This document shows positions 2,888 through 33,616 of a stretch of DNA of 33,616 nucleotides, one piece after another. The notes below the pieces were generated by a model. It ran no database searches. It saw only the letters and a list, made by a program, of their open reading frames with translations, and was not told the origin of the DNA. The position numbers and the translations under genes were made by a program. The stretch is from positions 1 to 33,616 of IMG/VR virus record IMGVR_UViG_2778261222_000001. One strand, given 5' to 3'. The stretch is from a virus (Duplodnaviria; Heunggongvirae; Uroviricota; Caudoviricetes). Each line of letters opens with the position of its first letter. Positions within the stretch are counted from its first letter, which is position 1.

Positions 2888-3377
2888 TAAAGGAGGCTTC
2901 GTCAGTAACGGTGCTTAAATCCAGCGCCTTTACCGCTTTGATATATGCCATCCACTGCGTAAGACGGACTTTGTCATCGTCGCTGATGGTGCCCAGCTCC
3001 AGCTCGGTTTTCCAGTCGGAGGTGATGTCCTTTGCTTCATTCAGCAGGCGCTGGCGTTGTTTTTCCGCCAGTTGCGAATAATCAACAGGAACAGGCAGCA
3101 CTTCGCCGTCCTGGTAATACCAGCAGGCTTCAATTCCAAAACCTTCCGGCAGCTCGTCCACTTCCACAATGGTGAAGCCAGCCGGATAAAGACGGGACAC
3201 GTCTTCCGCCATCGAATAAATCACGCCGGTTTCCGGGTGAATACACAATTTGTATTTCTTCGTGAATTTATCCAGTGATTCATAAAAATCCTGTCCGTCT
3301 TCACTGCGGAAATACTGAATATCCTTACCATAAGGCATATTTTCCGGGTAATAACGCGAAACGTTTCTTAGTTCCAT
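2847..3377 (-). CDS. Tail fibre assembly chaperone (Tfa-like)
   Basis: ATG at 3375-3377 preceded by AAGGAG 7 nt upstream; C-terminus ...NAINWPERP resembles the lambda Tfa C-terminus; follows the Mu-type fibre. Confidence 0.75.
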   Translation of the reverse strand: MELRNVSRYYPENMPYGKDIQYFRSEDGQDFYESLDKFTKKYKLCIHPETGVIYSMAEDVSRLYPAGFTIVEVDELPEGFGIEACWYYQDGEVLPVPVDYSQLAEKQRQRLLNEAKDITSDWKTELELGTISDDDKVRLTQWMAYIKAVKALDLSTVTDEASFNAINWPERPDAAA

Positions 3378-3391
3378 TGTTTTCTCCTTAA

Positions 3392-4387
3392 TTAACCTGA
3401 TACGGTGCGCCATGAACCATTGATATAAATCTGCGCGGATTTGTAATACACACCACCGATGTTATCCGCCGAACTTCTTCCCGTATCCTGGACATAAATT
3501 CCCGACAACTGACAGCCTGAAGGCGCGCGGAACGTCCAGGTGATTTCGTTACCACCCGGGTTGTAAAACACCTCATTGGTGTACTGAAAATTACGCACAG
3601 CGCCGGAATCGGTGGTGCTGATGGTGATATCGCTGGAGCCATCAAACGGTACATTGTTAATCCTGCGAGGGGTTTGTAGTTTTGTGGCAGTTGCTGCGTT
3701 GAAGCTGTCTTTTGATGTAAACACCTGCGCCCATTCAGACCAGGCTGCATCAGTGGTATCACGCCTTGAGCGAATATAAACCGGAGCATGCGCACCGCTC
3801 GTGCCACTCCAGCCAATCAGCAGTTCGCCTTCGCCAGATGCTGCCGCACCTTTCAGATGCAGAACATTGCCATAAGCAGTGGGATAGCCGTTGCTGTACG
3901 CTTCATACATCTGAAGTCCTGCATAGCCTTGTGCTGTACCGCTTAATGCTGTCACCGGCCCTTTTGATAAAAGGATGTCTGGTGACAGGCCGATTGCTTT
4001 AATAAATTCACTGGCGCTGTTTTTCCCGAGAATACTGCGCACAAAAGCACTGAGCGGCGTTAATGCCATTGTGTCTTCGCCGGTAAAATACGGGAACGTA
4101 TTATTCTGACCGGTTAATCCGGCAATAGCACCGGCTGAACCACTGTTCGTAATAAACAGTTTTTTCAGCGCTGTCATAATCTGGTTGGTGGTATTTTTAT
4201 CCGGTTTGATATTTGCCTGCCGGAGAATTTCCAGCAGTTCAGACTGAATAATATTAAACCAGTCCGGCCCCGGATAAGTGGGCGGAATACCGTTCCCGCC
4301 TTCGGTAAAATAAAGCGTTGTTTTGCTTAATTCAGCCGCGACAGGTGGCATCACCGGCACACCCGTCGGATTATCAACATGAAACAT
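3392..4387 (-). CDS. Tail fibre protein, Mu S-type N-terminal domain
   Basis: N-terminus MFHVDNPTGVPVMPPV... resembles the Mu/P2-type fibre baseplate-attachment domain as I recall it; GGAGAA Shine-Dalgarno upstream; 331 aa. Confidence 0.7.
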   Translation of the reverse strand: MFHVDNPTGVPVMPPVAAELSKTTLYFTEGGNGIPPTYPGPDWFNIIQSELLEILRQANIKPDKNTTNQIMTALKKLFITNSGSAGAIAGLTGQNNTFPYFTGEDTMALTPLSAFVRSILGKNSASEFIKAIGLSPDILLSKGPVTALSGTAQGYAGLQMYEAYSNGYPTAYGNVLHLKGAAASGEGELLIGWSGTSGAHAPVYIRSRRDTTDAAWSEWAQVFTSKDSFNAATATKLQTPRRINNVPFDGSSDITISTTDSGAVRNFQYTNEVFYNPGGNEITWTFRAPSGCQLSGIYVQDTGRSSADNIGGVYYKSAQIYINGSWRTVSG

Positions 4388-27108: not shown

Positions 27109-27283
27109 TTCTTAATACCTCTTCGCAATAAAAGATTTCATTGGGATAATGTTTTTGTATGCGCTCCATCACCTGCATACATGCCTGCTCGGTGGGCCAG
27201 ATTTTTTCCGTTACAGGGATGGCATCACAGGCATCATTCCCGCAGGTGCCAACCAGCAGGACAAAGCCAATTGACTTAATCAT
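27101..27283 (-). CDS. Small Cys-rich protein with N-terminal hydrophobic signal-like segment
   Basis: ATG at 27281-27283 overlaps the upstream stop (ATGATTAA); MIKSIGFVLLVGTCGNDAC..., five Cys in about 60 aa. Confidence 0.4.
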   Translation of the reverse strand: MIKSIGFVLLVGTCGNDACDAIPVTEKIWPTEQACMQVMERIQKHYPNEIFYCEEVLRNE

Positions 27284-27818
27284 GTTCACTGACTTCCTGT
27301 GTTGCGGCCGGAGCTGGTGAATAATCAAGAATGAGATAGCGCATGACGTGGTCGGTGATATTCCAGCCACTGGAACCACAAATAAAGCGCCCCAGCCGGA
27401 TATCGATATACGCCATCACAAAACGGGGCATTCCCTGTTTGCACATCTCGTCATCCACTTCAGCAACGATGTAAACCGACTCGCAGGTCAGTACGCCTGT
27501 CGCAAATTCTTTTGCCAGTGCCGGAATGGCATTGCCTTCCAGCCAGGGCAAAGAGCGGCGGAACGCGCACCATTGAGCATCATCAACATCGGGGTGTTCC
27601 GTTGTTGCGTTTCGTCTTACAGGAGGCGTCGGACGAGGGCGCGGAACGTCATAAAAGCCATTACATTCAGTCAGCAATCCGGCATCAACCGCATCGCGCA
27701 GGAAATACACCATTGAGGAAGGTGGCATCTTCATTTTTTCAGCCAGAACGCCACAGGTCAGACGGCCGTAAGCGCGTAATAATGTACTGACACCGTTCAG
27801 AATTTTTGCATCAATCAC
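27276..27818 (-). CDS. Hypothetical early protein, possible N-terminal winged helix
   Basis: 180 aa. Confidence 0.45.
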   Translation of the reverse strand: MIDAKILNGVSTLLRAYGRLTCGVLAEKMKMPPSSMVYFLRDAVDAGLLTECNGFYDVPRPRPTPPVRRNATTEHPDVDDAQWCAFRRSLPWLEGNAIPALAKEFATGVLTCESVYIVAEVDDEMCKQGMPRFVMAYIDIRLGRFICGSSGWNITDHVMRYLILDYSPAPAATQEVSEHD

Positions 27819-27821
27819 CGG

Positions 27822-28427
27822 TTATTCCTCCGTCAGCGCCACAAATTCAGAATGTTTAATGCGCTGGCATTCGGCGGGAACCGGTCCCTTAACCTCACCG
27901 CCAAGAAGGCGTACTTTAAACAAAATGCCGAATCCATCACGGCCGTGGTGCATTTCCCACACTGATTTGATGTCAAACAGGTCAACTTCGGCATCTACAT
28001 TAAGTTCATTACACAGCCAGCCCGGAAAATCCGGGTGTTTTTTGAGCTGATTTTCACAGTCCCGGATGAGCTTCCCGTACTCACGGCCTGCCGGTATTGT
28101 CATATCCGGCATTGCGCCCCATAACTGAATATCACCAATGAAAAGTGTCTTTGATTTAGCCTCCCATCCTTCCGGTGGTAAACGGTTAAACCAGACACGC
28201 GTAACCCTCTCAGGCCCTTTGTCACCAGACAAAGACACAGCGGTTGCATTCACTGATTGCTGTAATAACGCAATAACCTCACCACGCTTAACAGAAACGT
28301 CTTTCAGCCAGCGAATCGTATAAGCGTTAGCGGCTGTGTCACTCAGTTTAAAATAAGCACATGCTGTCATTTTCATTCTCTCCGGTTCTGATTCAGGCGC
28401 GAGTAGTCCCCTGACGTATCGCGCCAT
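27822..28427 (-). CDS. Hypothetical early protein
   Basis: 201 aa; true start may be an internal Met. Confidence 0.45.
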   Translation of the reverse strand: MARYVRGLLAPESEPERMKMTACAYFKLSDTAANAYTIRWLKDVSVKRGEVIALLQQSVNATAVSLSGDKGPERVTRVWFNRLPPEGWEAKSKTLFIGDIQLWGAMPDMTIPAGREYGKLIRDCENQLKKHPDFPGWLCNELNVDAEVDLFDIKSVWEMHHGRDGFGILFKVRLLGGEVKGPVPAECQRIKHSEFVALTEE

Positions 28428-28467
28428 AATTAAACGAATGTGAATTAATTAAATATTCGTGGTGGTA

Positions 28468-28992
28468 TTAAATACCGGCTTCCTGTTCAAACGGAATAAT
28501 AGAAAAATCTTCAATGCCCGATTTAACTGTAATTCCGGCAACACCTGCGACCGCTTTCGGTTCCAGTAAAATCGCTTCCTTGTTGATTTCCTGTTTCGTG
28601 CGAATAAAGCGTTGCAGGCCAAGACGCTCCAGCGTTTCCATCACCGCATCCACACCGCGAATGCTTACCGATGGTGGGCGCAGACGCCATGACACATCGC
28701 CGGTTACCAGGTTTGCCGTCTTCACCTTGCCGCCGTTCGTCAGTTCGTCACGGTTCGCTTCACACCATCCCTGAACGCCTTTTGAAAGGGTTTCGATACT
28801 GGTTTTAAGCGGCGCAATCTGCGAGGCGTATTTCTCCGTAATCTCGGCGATAGCGTCATTCATTTCCGTTTCAAGTCGTGCCGCTTCGCGTTGCAGGTCA
28901 CCAATCCGGCGGATATCACATACCACGGCATCGCGGGATTGCGGAACATAAGCCGCTGCGGCACTCTTGATTCGTTTTGCTGGTTTAGCCAT
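28468..28992 (-). CDS. gam: Gam host-nuclease inhibitor (Ku-like DNA end-binding protein)
   Basis: 174 aa; MAKPAKRIKSAAAAYVPQ...IPFEQEAGI matches my recollection of Mu Gam over its full length; AGGAG Shine-Dalgarno upstream. Confidence 0.9.
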   Translation of the reverse strand: MAKPAKRIKSAAAAYVPQSRDAVVCDIRRIGDLQREAARLETEMNDAIAEITEKYASQIAPLKTSIETLSKGVQGWCEANRDELTNGGKVKTANLVTGDVSWRLRPPSVSIRGVDAVMETLERLGLQRFIRTKQEINKEAILLEPKAVAGVAGITVKSGIEDFSIIPFEQEAGI

Positions 28993-29012
28993 ATAAATAA
29001 AGCTCCTGTTAA

Positions 29013-29312
29013 TTAATATTCGCTGTATACAATGCTGGATACAGCACGATTGCTTAATTCCATCTTTTGGGCAATGGCATGAATAGCCAGCCCTTCTTTA
29101 TAAAGTTCACGACACAAATATTTGTCGTGCTCACTGATTCGATATGCACACAACGATATTCCGTGCCTTCTGGCATGTGCCTGTAGGGCGGCTGGGGCAA
29201 CGTTCAGTTTTTTCGCCATTTCCTCGACGGTCATTTTCCCGACACTGGCTTCGATAAATTCCCGGTCTTCGCGTGACCAGCGTTTACGCTTACACATCAT
29301 TCCGGTCACCAC
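29013..29312 (-). CDS. Small helix-turn-helix DNA-binding protein
   Basis: 99 aa with two HTH-like segments (MTVEEMAKKLNVAPAALQAH and GLAIHAIAQKMELSNRAV). Confidence 0.45.
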   Translation of the reverse strand: MVTGMMCKRKRWSREDREFIEASVGKMTVEEMAKKLNVAPAALQAHARRHGISLCAYRISEHDKYLCRELYKEGLAIHAIAQKMELSNRAVSSIVYSEY

Positions 29313-29732
29313 TCAGTACAACATGGGGTCACGCAGTGATGCCGGAATATGCCGCAGCGATAACTGAACCGCTTTCAGGGCAAGGGAAGAATACGTCCCC
29401 TGCGTCCAGCCTTTCGCCATTTGCCGGTAATCGCGCCAGATGTTCTGCCACTGCTCCCGTGCGTCCGGGTCTGATGCGCTGATGTATTCGCGGTCCATGA
29501 CGTATTCCCATAAATCCACATTGAAGGCATTGCCAAACGTAATGGCGCGGAATACCGCCTCCCCGCAATAACGCGCACAAATGCTGTAATGGTCGAATGC
29601 AATCAGGTAAGTCTTTTCGCCATATCCCTCAACTTCGCGCGCGCAAATAAACTCGCGTAAGTCTCCGCCATTGTTATTACGCATTTTGATTCGAATTAAT
29701 GCCTGGATTTCGTTTCTGATTTTGGCGTTCAT
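29313..29732 (-). CDS. Hypothetical early protein
   Basis: 139 aa. Confidence 0.45.
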   Translation of the reverse strand: MNAKIRNEIQALIRIKMRNNNGGDLREFICAREVEGYGEKTYLIAFDHYSICARYCGEAVFRAITFGNAFNVDLWEYVMDREYISASDPDAREQWQNIWRDYRQMAKGWTQGTYSSLALKAVQLSLRHIPASLRDPMLY

Positions 29733-29746
29733 TGTCAGCGTTCCTT

Positions 29747-30010
29747 TCAGTGACGTGTTCCTTCAACTGTCGTTTCTGTGACACTGCCACCCGAAATGAC
29801 GCCATCATTTTTCAGTATTTCAATGGCCTCATGGGCTGATTCGCGAACGATATCCCGGCTTTTTTCCAGAACCAGTAACGCTATCGCACCAGCAAGCGTG
29901 TACTCATCACCATCCAGTTCTGCGCTGTGGTCCACGTTAACATTGGTGCGTAAATGCTGCCCTTTAACTTCAGATGTCACATTTTTGATTTCGATAATGA
30001 CTTTTGCCAT
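29747..30010 (-). CDS. Hypothetical early protein
   Basis: ATG at 30008-30010 with GAGGA Shine-Dalgarno (track ORF extends to 30064). Confidence 0.45.
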   Translation of the reverse strand: MAKVIIEIKNVTSEVKGQHLRTNVNVDHSAELDGDEYTLAGAIALLVLEKSRDIVRESAHEAIEILKNDGVISGGSVTETTVEGTRH

Positions 30011-30042
30011 TTTGTTATTCCTCACAAATAAATAATTCGTTA

Positions 30043-30270
30043 TTAACGCCAGATAATCTGGCAACCATTAAGGCGGGCCGTCCATACGGAACGGGCAACC
30101 CCTGATTTATGCTCCATAATCCTGACAGCGTTTCTGACCAGCTCCGGTGGCGGGCAGGTAATTTCAAGCACCGGGCGGGCCACGCCCAGCCAGGATTCGT
30201 TGACGTGGCTGCCGCGCTCCTGTAACCAGCTCTTTACTTCCGTTGCCATTTTGATATTCCGTGACATCAT
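30043..30270 (-). CDS. Hypothetical small protein in the position of Mu kil
   Basis: 75 aa; begins 12 nt after the B stop. Confidence 0.4.
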
Positions 30271-30282
30271 GATTTATGCCCC

Positions 30283-31215
30283 TTACCACCAGTTCAGTAA
30301 CTTCGGGTTGCTGTAAACCTCTTTAAAAGCCGCTTTAATGTAGCCTTTGGATAACGGAACACCTTTCCCGCTGGCTGCCAGCCATGCCTGATTCAACGTA
30401 TGAGTTAATACACGTAATGCACCTGGTTTTTCCGCTATGCTCTGCATGAGTGATAATTCATCTTCACCCTCAATGCCCCAGGCTTTCGCAATTGCCACCA
30501 CATCAGCCTTTTTGGCTTTACGCAGTTGTTTTGTTCTGGCGAAACGGCTGAACAAACGCGCAAGGTCATCCGTTCCCCGATGTGTGGCTTTGGCTAATTG
30601 GCTTGGGTTACCAATCAATACCATCCCGACGCCTGTTGCATCCTGAATGGCGCGCAACTGCTCCAGCCCGTCCATGCTCAGGTGGTCAGCTTCATCCACA
30701 ATCACCAGACCGCGTGTGCCGTTCAGTTTTTTGCGAATGGCACGGGTCAGCGCGCCTTTACTCCTTTGCGGATTATCAATTCCCAGCGCGTCTGCCAGTT
30801 CCAGCAGGCACTCGGTCACTGTTGAGTGCGCAGGGGAAAGGGTCACCATCCAGGTATTAGATACACGGTTACTGTATTCACGGGCCGCAACGGTTTTACC
30901 AACACCCGGTACACCAACCAGAACGCTGATACAGCCCATAACACGCACGGTCTGAAACAGCTCGCGCAAATCACGGAGGGTTTGTGTTTCCACAAGTTGC
31001 GGTGCACCTGGTAATTCCTGGCTTTTCTGCCAGTCCTGATGCCACACCAGTAATTTGTCATGCATCCCTTCGGTATCGCCTTTGTAACGACCTTTGCGAA
31101 GTTCCGATAGCGTGGCCTCTGACACGCCCGCCTCTTTAGCAATAACACCCTGAGTTTTTACGCCGTCGGAAATCAGCGCATTAATCGTATTGAAAACATC
31201 ATTAATATCGGTCAT
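30283..31215 (-). CDS. B: Transposition protein B (AAA+ ATPase, target DNA activator)
   Basis: 310 aa; Walker A motif GVPGVGKT; N-terminal HTH; follows the transposase; GAGGAAG Shine-Dalgarno. Confidence 0.9.
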   Translation of the reverse strand: MTDINDVFNTINALISDGVKTQGVIAKEAGVSEATLSELRKGRYKGDTEGMHDKLLVWHQDWQKSQELPGAPQLVETQTLRDLRELFQTVRVMGCISVLVGVPGVGKTVAAREYSNRVSNTWMVTLSPAHSTVTECLLELADALGIDNPQRSKGALTRAIRKKLNGTRGLVIVDEADHLSMDGLEQLRAIQDATGVGMVLIGNPSQLAKATHRGTDDLARLFSRFARTKQLRKAKKADVVAIAKAWGIEGEDELSLMQSIAEKPGALRVLTHTLNQAWLAASGKGVPLSKGYIKAAFKEVYSNPKLLNWW

Positions 31216-31258
31216 ATTACTTCCTCGGTTATTTAAAATTAACTTTGCTTCCCTGTTT

Positions 31259-31287
31259 AACAGTCCGTTCCCGCGGACTGTTTTTTT
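31259..31287 (+). terminator. Stem-loop in the A-B intergenic region with a T-run on the plus strand
   Basis: aacagtccg / cggactgtt 9-bp stem with 6-nt loop, followed by tttttatt on the plus strand; lies 3 nt from the A stop codon. Confidence 0.3.
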
Positions 31288-31289
31288 AT

Positions 31290-33377
31290 TCAGGCCAGCG
31301 GATCATCCTGTTCCTGTATGGCTGCAAGTTTCTGCAAACCCAGCCTGAAATCGCGTTCATAATCTTCGTCGTAATCCTCCTCATAATCCTGTTGCTGGAT
31401 GGTTACCGTATTACCAACCGGGCGATAAACATTATCCAGCCAGGGTTCAGTCTGTTTGTGCTCCAGAATCTGAATGCCTTCATCCTCAGCATCACGAATT
31501 TTTTCCTCAGCGCGTTTGCGCATTCCTTTAATACGCTGCTGTTGTTTGTGATATTCAGCACTGACAGCAAAGGCTGCGCGTTTATTGCCGTTCCATATCG
31601 CCTCACAGATAAAGCTGCCGTCCTTGCGACGTACCGTAATTCGCTCGGCGTCATGAATGTCATAACTGATAAGCACTTTGCGACCGTGTTCGTCACGCAA
31701 CTCCGGCGCGTAGTAAATATTGTTCAGCCACTGAATTTCGCAGCGTCTTACCGGTCGTTCCACCATCGGGCGGAACATGTCGCGCAGCTCAAGATCACTC
31801 AGCCACTCAATTTCGGTGTCTTCTTCTGCTAGGCGTTTTTTTCTGAACTCTGCCGGGCTGTAATGCCGCCCGTTCGGTTTCATCGGCAGCTCAGAATGTG
31901 GGCGGTTGTTGTACCATTCCACGCCTTCACGAATAGCCTCAATAAGCTCCGCCCACGATGGTAGCTCGCGCATTGCAGCTTTCTGTCGGTCGTTCAGAGG
32001 CTTGTCCTGTTGCATGGCGTTAAACGCTGAACGCAGATCACGGTTAAGTACACGCAACGATTCCCGGTCAGCACCCTTGCCAAAATAGGTGCGATACCTC
32101 CTGGCTATACGCATTGGCAGCGTCCGGTTCAGGCGTTCAATAATGCCGCGCCCCTGTGGATTACCGGCAATACCTGTTGGGTGTTTAATCCCCAGGCGGG
32201 GCAGAATACCCACGACCTCTTTGTCCAGCATGTCAGCCGTTTCACCAGAACCGTTATCCGAGTAATACAGAAACGGTTTTCCGTGGTTGCGAATGCCGTG
32301 CTGTATCGCACCGGCAACGGCGAACACGTTCTCGGCAAGGTCAAGACTCCAGCCAACAACAAACCGGGTTCCACCGTCGATCACAAATGTGACTTCCGGT
32401 GAGAATGGACGCCCGTGGATCGGATGTGCACATTTCAGCTTCATACCGTGACCGTCACCAATCCAGACATAATTCACCGGCATAGCTGCCCAGTCGCGAC
32501 GGGTGAATCCTTCAAGCTGACGGTATTCACTGCCGGTAACACGGCCTTTTTGTTTCACCACTTCCGGCAATTTTTTCATGGCATAACGAACCACATCGTA
32601 AGAGGGCATCACCTCTATCATGTAGGGTTCGTCTGCATGGCGACGCTGCCATTCCGCGACAAAATCTTCGTAGGCTTCTGACATAGATCTGCCATTCGCC
32701 TGGCGATACTGCGCCAGAAATTCAGGCAGCCAGCTAATTTCTTCCGGTTTTATTTCGTCGCGTTTTCCCGGTGCCAGTAACAGCAGCCGTTCTGCGGCGT
32801 TCTGTGATTGGTTGTATTTCAGCACCCACTGATAAAGCGGGTCACGACTGATGGTGCGATTAGCTCCACGTTTTGCATTGGCGGTAGCTGTGGCCTGTTG
32901 CAGGCGTTCCGGTAGTTCACCTTTACGGGCTTTTTCGACAAGATAGTTAATGGCTTTCAGCCGCCCGAGATTACCGTCGCTTTCCAGCTTCAGTACTTCC
33001 ACCACCAGCGCAGCCCTTGCTTCAGATACCCGACGCTGATTTTCGGTCAGCGTATTCAGGCGTTCTTCCATCAGTTGTGGCGAACCGCGATATGCTTCGA
33101 TTGCCTGGACAGCATCAGGATTGCGTGTTTTTCTGACAACAGCTTTCACTTCAGAAACATCGTTCTCTTTAGCCACCAGTTGTTCCACATAGCGTTCACG
33201 CAGTGCCTTTTGTGTTATTTCCGGCAGACAATCAATGTGGTATTCAATGGCTTTTGTACCTGCGCGTTTACGTCGGAGATGTTCTGATGAAGCCAGTTTT
33301 TTTATGGCGTACCTCACACCCTGCGCGCTTCCCGGCATACCTGGTAGCCCTACGAGTTCGTTTACTGACACAAACAT
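31290..33377 (-). CDS. A: Mu-type DDE transposase A
   Basis: 695 aa; position after ner and before B; size comparable to MuA. Confidence 0.9.
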   Translation of the reverse strand: MFVSVNELVGLPGMPGSAQGVRYAIKKLASSEHLRRKRAGTKAIEYHIDCLPEITQKALRERYVEQLVAKENDVSEVKAVVRKTRNPDAVQAIEAYRGSPQLMEERLNTLTENQRRVSEARAALVVEVLKLESDGNLGRLKAINYLVEKARKGELPERLQQATATANAKRGANRTISRDPLYQWVLKYNQSQNAAERLLLLAPGKRDEIKPEEISWLPEFLAQYRQANGRSMSEAYEDFVAEWQRRHADEPYMIEVMPSYDVVRYAMKKLPEVVKQKGRVTGSEYRQLEGFTRRDWAAMPVNYVWIGDGHGMKLKCAHPIHGRPFSPEVTFVIDGGTRFVVGWSLDLAENVFAVAGAIQHGIRNHGKPFLYYSDNGSGETADMLDKEVVGILPRLGIKHPTGIAGNPQGRGIIERLNRTLPMRIARRYRTYFGKGADRESLRVLNRDLRSAFNAMQQDKPLNDRQKAAMRELPSWAELIEAIREGVEWYNNRPHSELPMKPNGRHYSPAEFRKKRLAEEDTEIEWLSDLELRDMFRPMVERPVRRCEIQWLNNIYYAPELRDEHGRKVLISYDIHDAERITVRRKDGSFICEAIWNGNKRAAFAVSAEYHKQQQRIKGMRKRAEEKIRDAEDEGIQILEHKQTEPWLDNVYRPVGNTVTIQQQDYEEDYDEDYERDFRLGLQKLAAIQEQDDPLA

Positions 33378-33379
33378 CT

Positions 33380-33616
33380 TTATGCTACCTTACGAACGTA
33401 TCGGCTGGGCCAGATCTCCTCCGGAGCCACACCAATAGCATCAGCAATGATGCGTTCATACTTAGGGCATTTACGATACAAGGCGTTCTTTAACGAATCC
33501 CTGTTTAAACCTGCTTCAACAGATAGAGAACGTAAAGTAAAGCCTTTCACATGTACCGCCGCGACAACATGCGCGGGATGCCAATCCTGTTTAACAACTT
33601 CATTTATAGACATCAT
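33380..33616 (-). CDS. ner: Ner-like DNA-binding early regulator
   Basis: 78 aa; ...WPSRY... C-terminal motif matches my recollection of Mu Ner; ATG at 33614-33616, the last bases of the window; directly upstream of A. Confidence 0.85.
   Translation of the reverse strand: MMSINEVVKQDWHPAHVVAAVHVKGFTLRSLSVEAGLNRDSLKNALYRKCPKYERIIADAIGVAPEEIWPSRYVRKVA

Follow-up and report, generated by a model that had tools for sequence, protein, structure and literature searches.

The four small genes that lie between the transposition ATPase gene B and gam in this prophage are, as judged by homology and synteny, its own copies of the Mu genes kil, E6, E7 and E8. They are real, ordinary and already known genes, and by analogy with Mu they appear to interfere with the host and to take no part in making the virus; nothing in the region would surprise a Mu specialist. 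The analysis was carried out on the window, that is, the whole stretch of 33,616 nt from IMG/VR record IMGVR_UViG_2778261222_000001, and the interval examined was 29013-30270. We consider it very likely that the prophage is transposable and Mu-like and that this interval is the promoter-proximal part of its "semi-essential early" (SE) region, in which kil and E8 form the backbone, E6 and E7 are cargo, and the genes have the functions proposed below. An earlier note made from the sequence alone had described four small ORFs of 75, 87, 139 and 99 aa between B and gam and had assigned them to the Mu kil region. All four are present with these sizes on the minus strand (Table 1), and synteny and homology agreed that the window is a Mu-like prophage and that the interval lies just right of B, at the start of the SE region.

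Table 1. Genes and spacer of the interval and its two boundaries, in window coordinates.
Feature	Coordinates	Strand	Size and remarks
Transposition ATPase B	30283..31215	minus	310 aa; upstream boundary of the interval
kil	30043..30270	minus	75 aa, ATG start; Mu Kil orthologue
kil-E6 spacer	30011..30042	minus	32 nt; contains the ribosome-binding site of E6
E6/Mup07 (gnarl2) orthologue	29747..30010	minus	87 aa from ATG
E7 (gp8) orthologue	29313..29732	minus	139 aa, ATG start
E8 (gp9) orthologue	29013..29312	minus	99 aa (GTG) or 95 aa (ATG at 29300)
gam, host-nuclease inhibitor	28468..28992	minus	174 aa; downstream boundary of the interval

The genes are closely packed. The start codon of kil falls 12 nt past the B stop on the same strand, and the spacers from B to gam measure, in order, 12, 32, 14, 0 (or 12) and 20 nt. 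In the mechanical ORF list, the 87-aa ORF appeared as 105 aa from an upstream TTG. Shine-Dalgarno-like sequences were observed ahead of kil (AAGGGG, 9 nt upstream), the 87-aa ORF (GAGGAA), the 139-aa ORF (AAGGAA) and gam (AGGAG); the signal was clear for three of the four ORFs and only weak for the fourth, E8. Two starts can be read for E8: a GTG abutting the TGA of E7 (TGAGTG), which would imply translational coupling, and an ATG 12 nt further downstream, behind GGTGA. Since both positions are usually start codons across the relatives, the start of E8 is ambiguous. No terminator-like sites were found in 28300-30500, and promoter-like sites in the same stretch occurred at the chance level (3 found versus 2.8 expected). 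No internal promoter, terminator or RNA element was above chance, and no Rfam family was detected anywhere in the window. The four small genes would have neither promoter nor terminator to themselves and would be read on the minus strand within the long early operon that runs ner-A-B-... In Mu lysogens, low-level early transcription from Pe and Pe* has been reported (PMC3820752).

Each ORF matched a separate PHROG family, with E values between 7e-28 and 1.6e-87 and full-length matches for three of the four, and all four are syntenic with genes of Mu, SfMu and D108. We calculated dN/dS by the Nei-Gojobori method on 47 sequences: 44 IMG/VR loci together with the window, Mu and SfMu. The values were 0.09 for kil, 0.23 for the 87-aa ORF, 0.17 for the 139-aa ORF and 0.22-0.28 for the 99-aa ORF, with 0.09 for gam for comparison, and full-length conservation without gaps was observed over 15-31 distinct alleles at dS of 0.25-0.74. 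These ratios (0.09-0.28) indicated that all four ORFs are under purifying selection. The idea that some or all of them are open frames that arose by chance, or pseudogenes decaying in a defective prophage, could appeal to their shortness, to the confinement of E7 relatives to Mu-like prophages of enterobacteria and to a frameshift of the E6-slot gene in STEC346, the closest E. coli genome, but the conservation and selection results leave it effectively refuted and scarcely credible, and the Shine-Dalgarno sequences, the operon packing, the PHROG matches (that of E8 covering part of a longer profile) and the biological activity of the expressed Mu E6 protein (PMC12373910) also speak against it. 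The earlier note had named a lack of ribosome-binding sites and of conservation in related prophages as what would refute its reading; here, sequences resembling ribosome-binding sites and conservation are both present.

The comparison with Mu revealed close agreement within the interval. By megablast, the stretch from gam to E6 showed 85-89% identity to Mu and SfMu and corresponded to the annotated Mu genes Mu_5 to Mu_10. In Mu (AF083977 / NC_000929, 4315-5781), the counterparts are kil (gp5), E6/Mup07 (gp7), E7/Mup08 (gp8) and E8/Mup09 (gp9). They too lie between B and gam and agree with the window genes in order, strand and place in the operon, and the Mu protein lengths (74/75, 87, 139 and 95/99 aa) match those of the window, with about 85% DNA identity over gam..E6. 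A homology search against the Mu early-region proteins, which had been proposed in the earlier note, yielded identities of 84% for Kil, 71% for E6, 83% for E7 and 86% for E8. The two prophages differ at the kil-E6 junction: DNA alignment of the junctions showed that Mu and SfMu have E5 (76 aa, CxxC-rich) between kil and E6, whereas the window has only the short spacer. By tblastn, E5 was present in Mu, SfMu and many IMG/VR loci and was not found in the window. The initial matching of the interval to Mu thus stands for the four genes found here and needs amending for E5, the fifth gene that Mu has and this prophage does not. The boundary genes were recognized as B (Pfam Phage-MuB_C, E = 5e-24; AAA_22, E = 3e-20) and gam (Pfam Phage_Mu_Gam, E = 4e-43). 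The window Gam is 93% identical to Mu Gam, and the window B shares only 44% identity with Mu B and 99% with its counterpart in E. coli STEC346. Because the flanking B and A are far more diverged from Mu than the genes from kil to gam, the sequence comparison identifies the prophage as a mosaic relative of Mu, not Mu itself.

The 75-aa ORF was assigned as Kil on the basis of its sequence. It matched phrog_2743 over its whole length (E = 1.8e-39, residues 1-75 of 75), and Pfam PF26843 (Kil_protein) was available as a precomputed annotation on the exact sequence, which was also found in 1256 blocks of the assembly collection. The full-length family match and the position directly after B in the early operon place it in the Mu Kil family; this position is common to Mu, SfMu and D108 and to prophages of Klebsiella, Kluyvera and Aeromonas. 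The earlier note was therefore right about an ORF directly after B, and its description of that ORF as unknown gives way to Kil. Relatives were detected upstream of gam in Kluyvera and Aeromonas and, more weakly, in other Proteobacteria. The protein is basic (pI 10.3) and predicted to be soluble, and neither Kil nor E6 gave a significant match to solved structures.

Expression of Mu kil produces spherical cells (Waggoner 1989, as cited in PMC3961180), and deletion of the SE region restores viability following MuBam infection (PMC3325207). By analogy with Mu Kil, the window protein would kill the host and round E. coli cells, which would imply a hit on cell shape or envelope growth rather than on FtsZ. 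The Kil proteins of lambda and Rac, which are FtsZ inhibitors, are likewise small, prophage-encoded, toxic to the host and active on morphogenesis. However, they share no sequence similarity with Mu Kil, and they cause filaments where Mu Kil causes spherical cells (PMC3961180). In PHROG, the Mu Kil family carries "septation inhibition" as a borrowed description, and since Mu Kil differs from lambda and Rac Kil in both sequence and phenotype, this label was probably mis-transferred.

The 87-aa ORF, which had also been listed as unknown, is by sequence an orthologue of Mu E6/Mup07, a protein with a published phenotype under the name gnarl2 (PMC12373910). It aligned to Mu E6 (NP_050611.1) over 87/87 residues with no gaps and matched phrog_10252 over its full length (E = 3.5e-39). 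The protein is acidic (pI 5.1), predicted to be soluble and without an enzyme domain. Mu E6 was named "gnarl2/orf63" by Silas and co-workers (Nat Commun 2025, PMC12373910), and we confirmed in the supplement of that paper and in the Mu annotation that gnarl2 is NC_000929 4784..5047, i.e., E6/Mup07. The Mu allele of Gnarl2 downshifts O-antigen bands in ECOR1 and ECOR22 (PMC12373910; bioRxiv 10.1101/2023.04.06.535777) and sensitizes wild O-antigen E. coli to T5, raising infection 10^5-10^6-fold; the phenotype is specific to the host strain, and AP-MS on Gnarl2 returned no clear target (PMC12373910). The three proteins Gnarl1-3 are small phage accessory proteins that alter the O-antigen, and among them Gnarl3 alone has an identified target, GalU (PMC12373910). 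As an orthologue, the 87-aa ORF matches gnarl2 over the full length, but it is a distinct allele, 29% diverged from the assayed Mu protein. Like its Mu counterpart, it may act as a small non-enzymatic effector that perturbs O-antigen or LPS synthesis, and it would probably mask receptors against superinfection or re-adsorption of progeny. We infer the functions of both Kil and Gnarl2 from the Mu proteins, to which the window proteins are 84% and 71% identical. In relatives, the E6 slot is filled either by E6 or by an 89-aa protein (phrog_2230) that looks unrelated and has only a MAKVI N-terminus in common with E6; BLASTP gave no alignment between the two, and E6 matched phrog_2230 at E = 3e-4 only.

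The 139-aa protein E7 is predicted to be soluble and matched phrog_3690 over residues 1-139 of 139 (E = 1.6e-87). An exhaustive HMMER search of 1.84 billion representative proteins recovered only its own family and fragments, and a word-index search recovered only close relatives. The single "distant" match, P0053, looks like a frameshift chimera of E7 and was set aside. No matches to E7 were found in PDB, Pfam, NCBIfam or PADLOC, whose defence-system models gave no meaningful match. AlphaFold2, run on a 14-sequence alignment, produced a model with a pLDDT of 44.9, which was not usable and showed no confident fold. A literature search on the function of Mu E7 (Mup08) found nothing relevant. 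These sequence searches identify E7 as a lineage-restricted orphan. Some E. coli prophages of otherwise similar make-up lack E7, and because the gene behaves as swappable cargo, it may represent another dispensable, host-directed accessory effector.

The layout of the region was compared across about 125 related prophage loci, in panels gathered with E7, E8 or Gam as bait, so that any statement that a gene is always present is conditional on this ascertainment. Among the 44 IMG/VR loci, kil is followed by E5, a 70-aa alternative or nothing, and then by E6 or the 89-aa alternative. Three E. coli loci (L179-L181) carry kil, the alternative E6, E8 and gam, without E7. In 31 IMG/VR loci (L148-L178) and in L096-L099 (Klebsiella, Pluralibacter and one unassigned sequencing-run contig), E8 stands between kil and either DUF3164 or gam, in most cases as the next gene after kil. 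Profile searches of gam loci in 47 other species detected kil and did not detect E7 or E8. E8 is kept in two enterobacterial lineages. The enterobacterial Mu-like layout can be described as B, kil, zero to three cargo genes, E8, and then gam or DUF3164. Based on this layout, we regard kil and E8 as the backbone and E5, E6 and E7 as exchangeable cargo, the window carrying the version kil-E6-E7-E8 without E5.

E8, the other backbone gene, encodes a basic protein (pI 9.3) of about 11 kDa. It matched phrog_323 (E = 7e-28) at profile positions 142-244 of 319 only, and the name of this family, "transcriptional regulator", is an annotation label rather than an experimental result. The AlphaFold2 model had a mean pLDDT of 77.8 and contained three-helix bundles at residues 14-49 and 61-97, joined by a linker of about 10 residues. 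E8 is thus confidently predicted to consist of two tandem three-helix HTH bundles, and many HTH Pfam families matched either half, which bore out the earlier reading of a dual-HTH protein. The sequence match together with the two-HTH architecture assigns it to the Mu E8/gp9 family. By Foldseek, the best full-length match was the bipartite domain of Tc3 (1u78, E = 0.039), followed by Cbp2 (2lvs) and AraC-type domains. Like the Tc3 transposase N-terminus, Cbp2/Cbp1 and AraC-type domains, E8 is a basic tandem HTH protein; unlike them, it is a free-standing 11-kDa protein without a catalytic or ligand domain, and its scores fall far below the family thresholds. Weak sequence echoes of Cbp2/Cbp1, including an ELYKEG-type motif, were observed (PDB phmmer E = 0.08, profile E = 0.03), and NCBIfam HTH_Cbp1 (NF040595) matched at E = 2e-4 with 21 bits versus a cutoff of 140. 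Membership in the Cbp1/Cbp2 family was rejected because the scores were far below threshold, and the resemblance was kept as an architectural analogy only.

A literature search on the function of E8 (Mup09, Mu gp9) found no paper. By analogy with Tc3 or Cbp2, the modelled protein may bind DNA in a bipartite manner, with one HTH per major groove. It could be an accessory factor that binds specific DNA sequences in the early phase and regulates transcription or modulates transposition, and the predicted fold, basic pI and conservation are compatible with an additional early regulator. We put forward, tentatively, the possibility that E8 acts early as a DNA-binding regulator which enterobacterial Mu-like phages conserve and which has so far escaped recognition. 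It would be kept together with kil, with turnover of the genes in between, and would control either the timing or level of early host-directed expression or the efficiency of replicative transposition (possibly as "arm", a function of the SE region known from genetics), and the gap between kil and E8 would be a dedicated slot for the exchange of host-manipulating or anti-defence effectors such as gnarl2 and E7. If this were true, E7 would become a candidate for a counter-defence mechanism.

A role in transposition itself, in which E8 would bind the Mu ends, the enhancer or target DNA, tune replicative transposition and perhaps correspond to "arm", is unlikely on the present evidence. Such a factor would be comparable to an IS3 OrfA or to the DNA-binding domain of a transposase. 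The match to Pfam HTH_Tnp_1, the N-terminus of IS3-type transposases, exceeded the gathering score (26.1 versus 24.1 bits, E = 1e-5, residues 6-44), and the gene shares an operon with A and B, which it follows closely. In addition, Mu replication is stimulated by early functions that are not essential (Goosen et al. 1982, as listed in the references of PMC10052514), and the SEE region has been said to contain arm (PMC4553209). However, the HTH_Tnp_1 alignment spans model positions 1-41 of 75, the HTH part only, and sigma region 4, GerE, MarR and other HTH families matched E8 almost equally well. Furthermore, hhalign detected no similarity between E8 and this prophage's own transposase (probability 0.1%), a result that also dismissed a duplicated MuA end-binding domain. 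Assignment of E8 as an IS3 OrfA was rejected as well: the domain is partial, with the coiled-coil part after the HTH outside the alignment, the next gene is gam and not a transposase ORF, and E8 is not similar to the prophage's own MuA, the HTH type being all that is shared.

The distribution of conserved residues brings in a different reading, that the second domain of E8 contacts a host protein such as RNA polymerase or sigma-70, which would make E8 a host-takeover factor rather than a reader of DNA sequence. The alignment contained 22 invariant columns, of which 17 lie in domain 2 and one (S53) in the linker, and lineages differ in the putative recognition helix of domain 1. A conserved DNA site would fit the same pattern, though, E8 is basic, and similarity to sigma region 4 is generic to three-helix HTH domains; we therefore judge this reading improbable.

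The adjacency of kil and E8 might instead point to a toxin-antitoxin-like pair, in which the HTH protein acts as antidote or autoregulator by neutralizing or repressing Kil. E8 starts 2 nt past the kil stop in Klebsiella, Pluralibacter and many IMG/VR prophages, the two are the retained genes of the interval, antitoxins are typically small HTH proteins, and a NCBIfam HigA-antidote model matched weakly (E = 0.0025, far below its cutoff). Yet phages that carry the whole SE region, E8 included, still kill: viability after MuBam/MuAam infection was about 20% and was relieved only by deletion of the SE region (PMC3325207). Moreover, one to three genes stand between kil and E8 in the Mu lineage, Kluyvera and Aeromonas prophages have kil without any E8, and no promoter above chance precedes kil. 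The obligate adjacency or co-occurrence and the own autoregulated promoter of type II toxin-antitoxin systems were accordingly not found for kil-E8. Given this distribution and the published killing data, we rejected E8 as a Kil antitoxin, a role that appears decidedly improbable.

Returning to E8 as a possible early DNA-binding regulator, we regard it as a conserved member of the region that is worth a DNA-binding study. The comparison suggests where to look: kil and E8, as the backbone, frame a slot of exchangeable cargo, and either gam or DUF3164 takes the next position. The slot, which holds E5, E6 or the 89-aa protein in its place, and E7, is an obvious place to search for small proteins that manipulate the host in the manner of Gnarl2. 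For annotation, the names kil, E6/gnarl2-like, E7-like and E8-like would serve for the ORFs, and the prophage can be entered as a mosaic relative of Mu without E5. Past gam, an extra 201-aa gene is present in both the window and SfMu and is absent from Mu.

An almost complete Mu-like transposable prophage fills the window, with its coding on the minus strand. The four ORFs that the earlier note had listed between B and gam were all present exactly as described, and the spacers from B to gam measured 12, 32, 14, 0 (or 12) and 20 nt. Clear Shine-Dalgarno sequences were located ahead of the kil, E6 and E7 ORFs and gam. The start of E8 was ambiguous: in most relatives an ATG or GTG abuts the preceding TGA, with another ATG four codons further on, and a few relatives keep just one of the two candidates. 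No terminator-like sites were found in 28300-30500, and promoter-like sites in that interval were at chance level (3 found vs 2.8 expected), which fits a shared transcript of A, B and the four ORFs that starts at the early promoter. No Rfam family matched anywhere in the window.

Early-region features of the window and their PHROG matches
Feature	Position	Strand	PHROG match
Ner-like HTH gene	33380-33616	-	
Transposase A	31290-33377	-	
ATPase B	30283-31215	-	
75-aa ORF (kil)	30043-30270	-	E = 1.8e-39, full length
87-aa ORF (E6), counted from ATG	29747-30010	-	E = 3.5e-39, full length
139-aa ORF (E7)	29313-29732	-	E = 1.6e-87, full length
99-aa ORF (E8) from GTG, or 95 aa from ATG at 29300	29013-29312	-	E = 7e-28
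gam	28468-28992	-	
201-aa gene (no Pfam)	27822-28427	-	phrog_2260
Homologue of the Mu gp11 gene	27276-27818		

In a megablast comparison, positions 28400-30022 were 85-89% identical to Mu, SfMu and Yersinia Mu-like phages. The annotated Mu records give the order B, kil (Mu_5), E5 (Mu_6), E6 (Mu_7), E7 (Mu_8), E8 (Mu_9) and gam (Mu_10). The identity of the window proteins to those of Mu was 84% for Kil, 71% for E6, 83% for E7 and 86% for E8. These results bore out the earlier assignment of the interval to the Mu kil region and identified the four ORFs as Mu early genes that were already known, carried here by a common variant of E. coli prophage. Judged by its sequence, the 75-aa ORF is Kil itself; its place right after B was given correctly, whereas its description as unknown did not hold. 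Pfam family PF26843 (Kil_protein), a recent one, was assigned to the exact Kil sequence, which was present in 1256 assembly-collection blocks; the ORF had come up empty in the Pfam search because the Pfam copy used did not contain this model. The 87-aa ORF had also been called unknown, but it is the orthologue of Mu E6 (gnarl2), the function of which was published in 2025. The earlier observation was thus confirmed and its interpretation partly supported.

Each of the four ORFs matched its own PHROG family, with the E8 match limited to positions 142-244 of the 319-position profile. Conservation was gap-free across a panel of 47 sequences (the window, Mu, SfMu and 44 IMG/VR loci). Pairwise Nei-Gojobori dN/dS, a simple method applied to non-independent pairs, was 0.09 for kil, 0.23 for E6, 0.17 for E7 and 0.22-0.28 for E8, with gam (0.09) as the benchmark; despite these caveats, purifying selection on the four ORFs was unambiguous. 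Ribosome-binding sites, conservation and purifying selection together indicated real genes, contrary to the possibility that the ORFs lack both ribosome-binding sites and conservation.

Window B was only 44% identical to Mu B, and the best E. coli genome match, STEC346, reached 95.8% identity; the element is therefore a mosaic relative of Mu. The fifth Mu gene, the CxxC-rich E5 (76 aa, several CxxC pairs, zinc-ribbon-like, phrog_3786; 3122-3352 in the Mu locus L001), was missing from the window, and a 32-nt spacer with the E6 ribosome-binding site was found instead (30011-30042). The identical spacer occurred in other E. coli prophages, in which the E5 slot was either empty or filled by a 70-aa gene unrelated to E5 (phrog_3375). 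A and B (30283-33377) were strongly diverged from Mu, whereas kil to gam was 71-93% identical, with a recombination boundary at or near the B/kil junction. The IMG/VR loci had B genes of at least three types (~44%, 70% and 97-99% identical to window B), in free combination with kil alleles. The 201-aa gene directly downstream of gam had a 66%-identical counterpart in SfMu and none in Mu; there the gp11 (Gp11_C) gene comes after gam.

In Mu, the stretch between B and C is termed the 'semi-essential early' region, and its deletion restores viability after infection by replication-defective Mu (PMC3325207). Published reports describe Mu Kil as toxic and as rounding cells (PMC3325207, PMC3961180), with kil expression yielding spherical E. 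coli (PMC3961180). The Kil proteins of lambda and Rac have no sequence kinship to Mu Kil and, in contrast to it, block FtsZ and produce filaments (PMC3961180). PHROG 2743, 6381 and 2679 describe the Mu Kil family as 'Kil protein for bacterial septation inhibition'; since both sequence and phenotype differ, this description was probably carried over from lambda/Rac Kil. Mu E6/Mup07 (NP_050611.1, NC_000929 4784..5047) was found to be gnarl2 via the Mu locus tags. In wild E. coli ECOR1 and ECOR22, gnarl2 alone shifts the O-antigen bands downward and raises T5 infection 10^5-10^6-fold, and no clear target emerged from affinity-purification mass spectrometry (PMC12373910; also covered in the preprint bioRxiv 10.1101/2023.04.06.535777). 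Its authors proposed superinfection exclusion or receptor masking (PMC12373910), a role that is plausible for a prophage given that Mu lysogens transcribe the early operon at a low level from Pe and an internal promoter, Pe* (PMC3820752). By analogy with the Mu orthologues, one ORF would carry the classical kil function and one the recently published function, and the window alleles would keep the Kil and Gnarl2 activities and the expression in lysogens.

The E6 slot was variable. In several comparison loci it held an 89-aa protein (phrog_2230, E = 1.4e-25; L055 ~3210-3480, L059 3211-3480, L179-L182 4261-4530), which begins with the same five residues as E6 (MAKVI) and has the same upstream spacer; BLASTP found no similarity between the two proteins. 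Either extreme divergence or replacement via recombination at the gene start would account for this relation. If the 89-aa protein also acts on LPS, the E6 slot may track the host O-antigen type. In STEC346, the closest genome match, the E6-slot gene (L004 4359-4629) was annotated as frameshifted and had no detectable similarity to window E6; E6-slot cargo decays or is replaced even between ~96%-identical prophages.

Two homology searches for E7, one an exhaustive HMMER search over 1.84 billion representatives, recovered the E7 family alone, and the sole 'distant' match looked like a frameshifted E7. The structure model was unusable (pLDDT 44.9), and a literature search on E7 function found no paper. 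That E7 is a true orphan is a mildly new point. One Klebsiella-type prophage had a 111-aa relative (32% identity over ~100 residues) in the gap from B to kil (L161 2446-2781), a slot different from that in Mu, which suggests that the family moves as a cassette. Kil was identical in some E. coli prophages that lacked E7 and had the order kil, 89-aa gene, E8, gam. Together, these arrangements suggested that E7 behaves as dispensable, mobile cargo, and we infer that it may act as a host-directed accessory effector.

The AlphaFold2 model of E8 (14-sequence alignment, mean pLDDT 77.8) contained two three-helix bundles (helices 14-23/29-36/40-49 and 61-72/77-83/88-97), in agreement with the two HTH-like segments reported for the 99-aa protein. 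The linker was of low confidence and pTM was 0.44, leaving the relative orientation of the domains undefined. E8 was basic (pI 9.3) and had no membrane segment. Pfam HTH_Tnp_1 scored above gathering on domain 1, and ~20 further HTH families matched one half or the other. The best full-length Foldseek matches were the Tc3 bipartite DNA-binding domain, Cbp2 and AraC-type domains, all weak (E >= 0.04), and the nearest viral structures were many uncharacterised phage proteins of ~100-200 aa. E8 is a free-standing tandem-HTH protein; most likely its DNA binding is bipartite, and it would regulate transcription or transposition. A 153-aa homologue in Pluralibacter gergoviae (P0023; L098 5001-5462) had three HTH units, the first being duplicated, which adds weight to regarding E8 as a modular array of tandem HTH units, as in Cbp1. 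Rival readings are a transposition cofactor with an 'arm' function and a host-protein binder. Two observations speak against a third, a Kil antidote: killing takes place in the presence of E8, and other genera have kil but no E8. IS3 OrfA was rejected, as the HTH_Tnp_1 match covered only the HTH portion of that model, as were Cbp1/2 family membership (21 bits vs a cutoff of 140) and kinship to the prophage's own transposase (no relation). A literature search on E8 function found no paper.

The comparison panels were baited with E7, E8 or Gam, and retention frequencies are biased accordingly. In the E7-baited IMG/VR loci (n = 44), the stretch from kil to E7 held E5, the 70-aa gene or nothing, followed by E6 or the 89-aa gene; the window arrangement, kil-E6-E7-E8 without E5, recurred in at least 8. 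The E8-baited second lineage (31 IMG/VR loci, Klebsiella and Pluralibacter genomes and one unassigned sequencing-run contig) had the order B-kil-E8, with E8 usually starting 2-5 nt past kil and followed by DUF3164 or, less often, gam. Profile searches of 47 Gam-anchored loci of other species detected kil in Kluyvera and Aeromonas, with weak matches in some Beta- and Gammaproteobacteria as well, and did not find E7 or E8. From these bait-selected panels, the layout is B and kil, followed by 0-3 cargo genes, E8 and finally gam or DUF3164. Two mildly new comparative points are that E8 is a conserved partner of kil, the pair flanking a cargo slot, and that gam alternates with DUF3164. In Klebsiella- and Pluralibacter-type prophages, a 205-aa DUF3164 protein (Pfam E = 9.5e-88) occupied the gam position (L096 5303-5920, L098 5478-6095, L099 3418-4035, and most of L148-L178), and a few members of this lineage carried gam there instead. 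By position, the two genes look like alternatives to each other, a hint that DUF3164 may be functionally analogous to Gam in DNA-end protection or anti-RecBCD activity.
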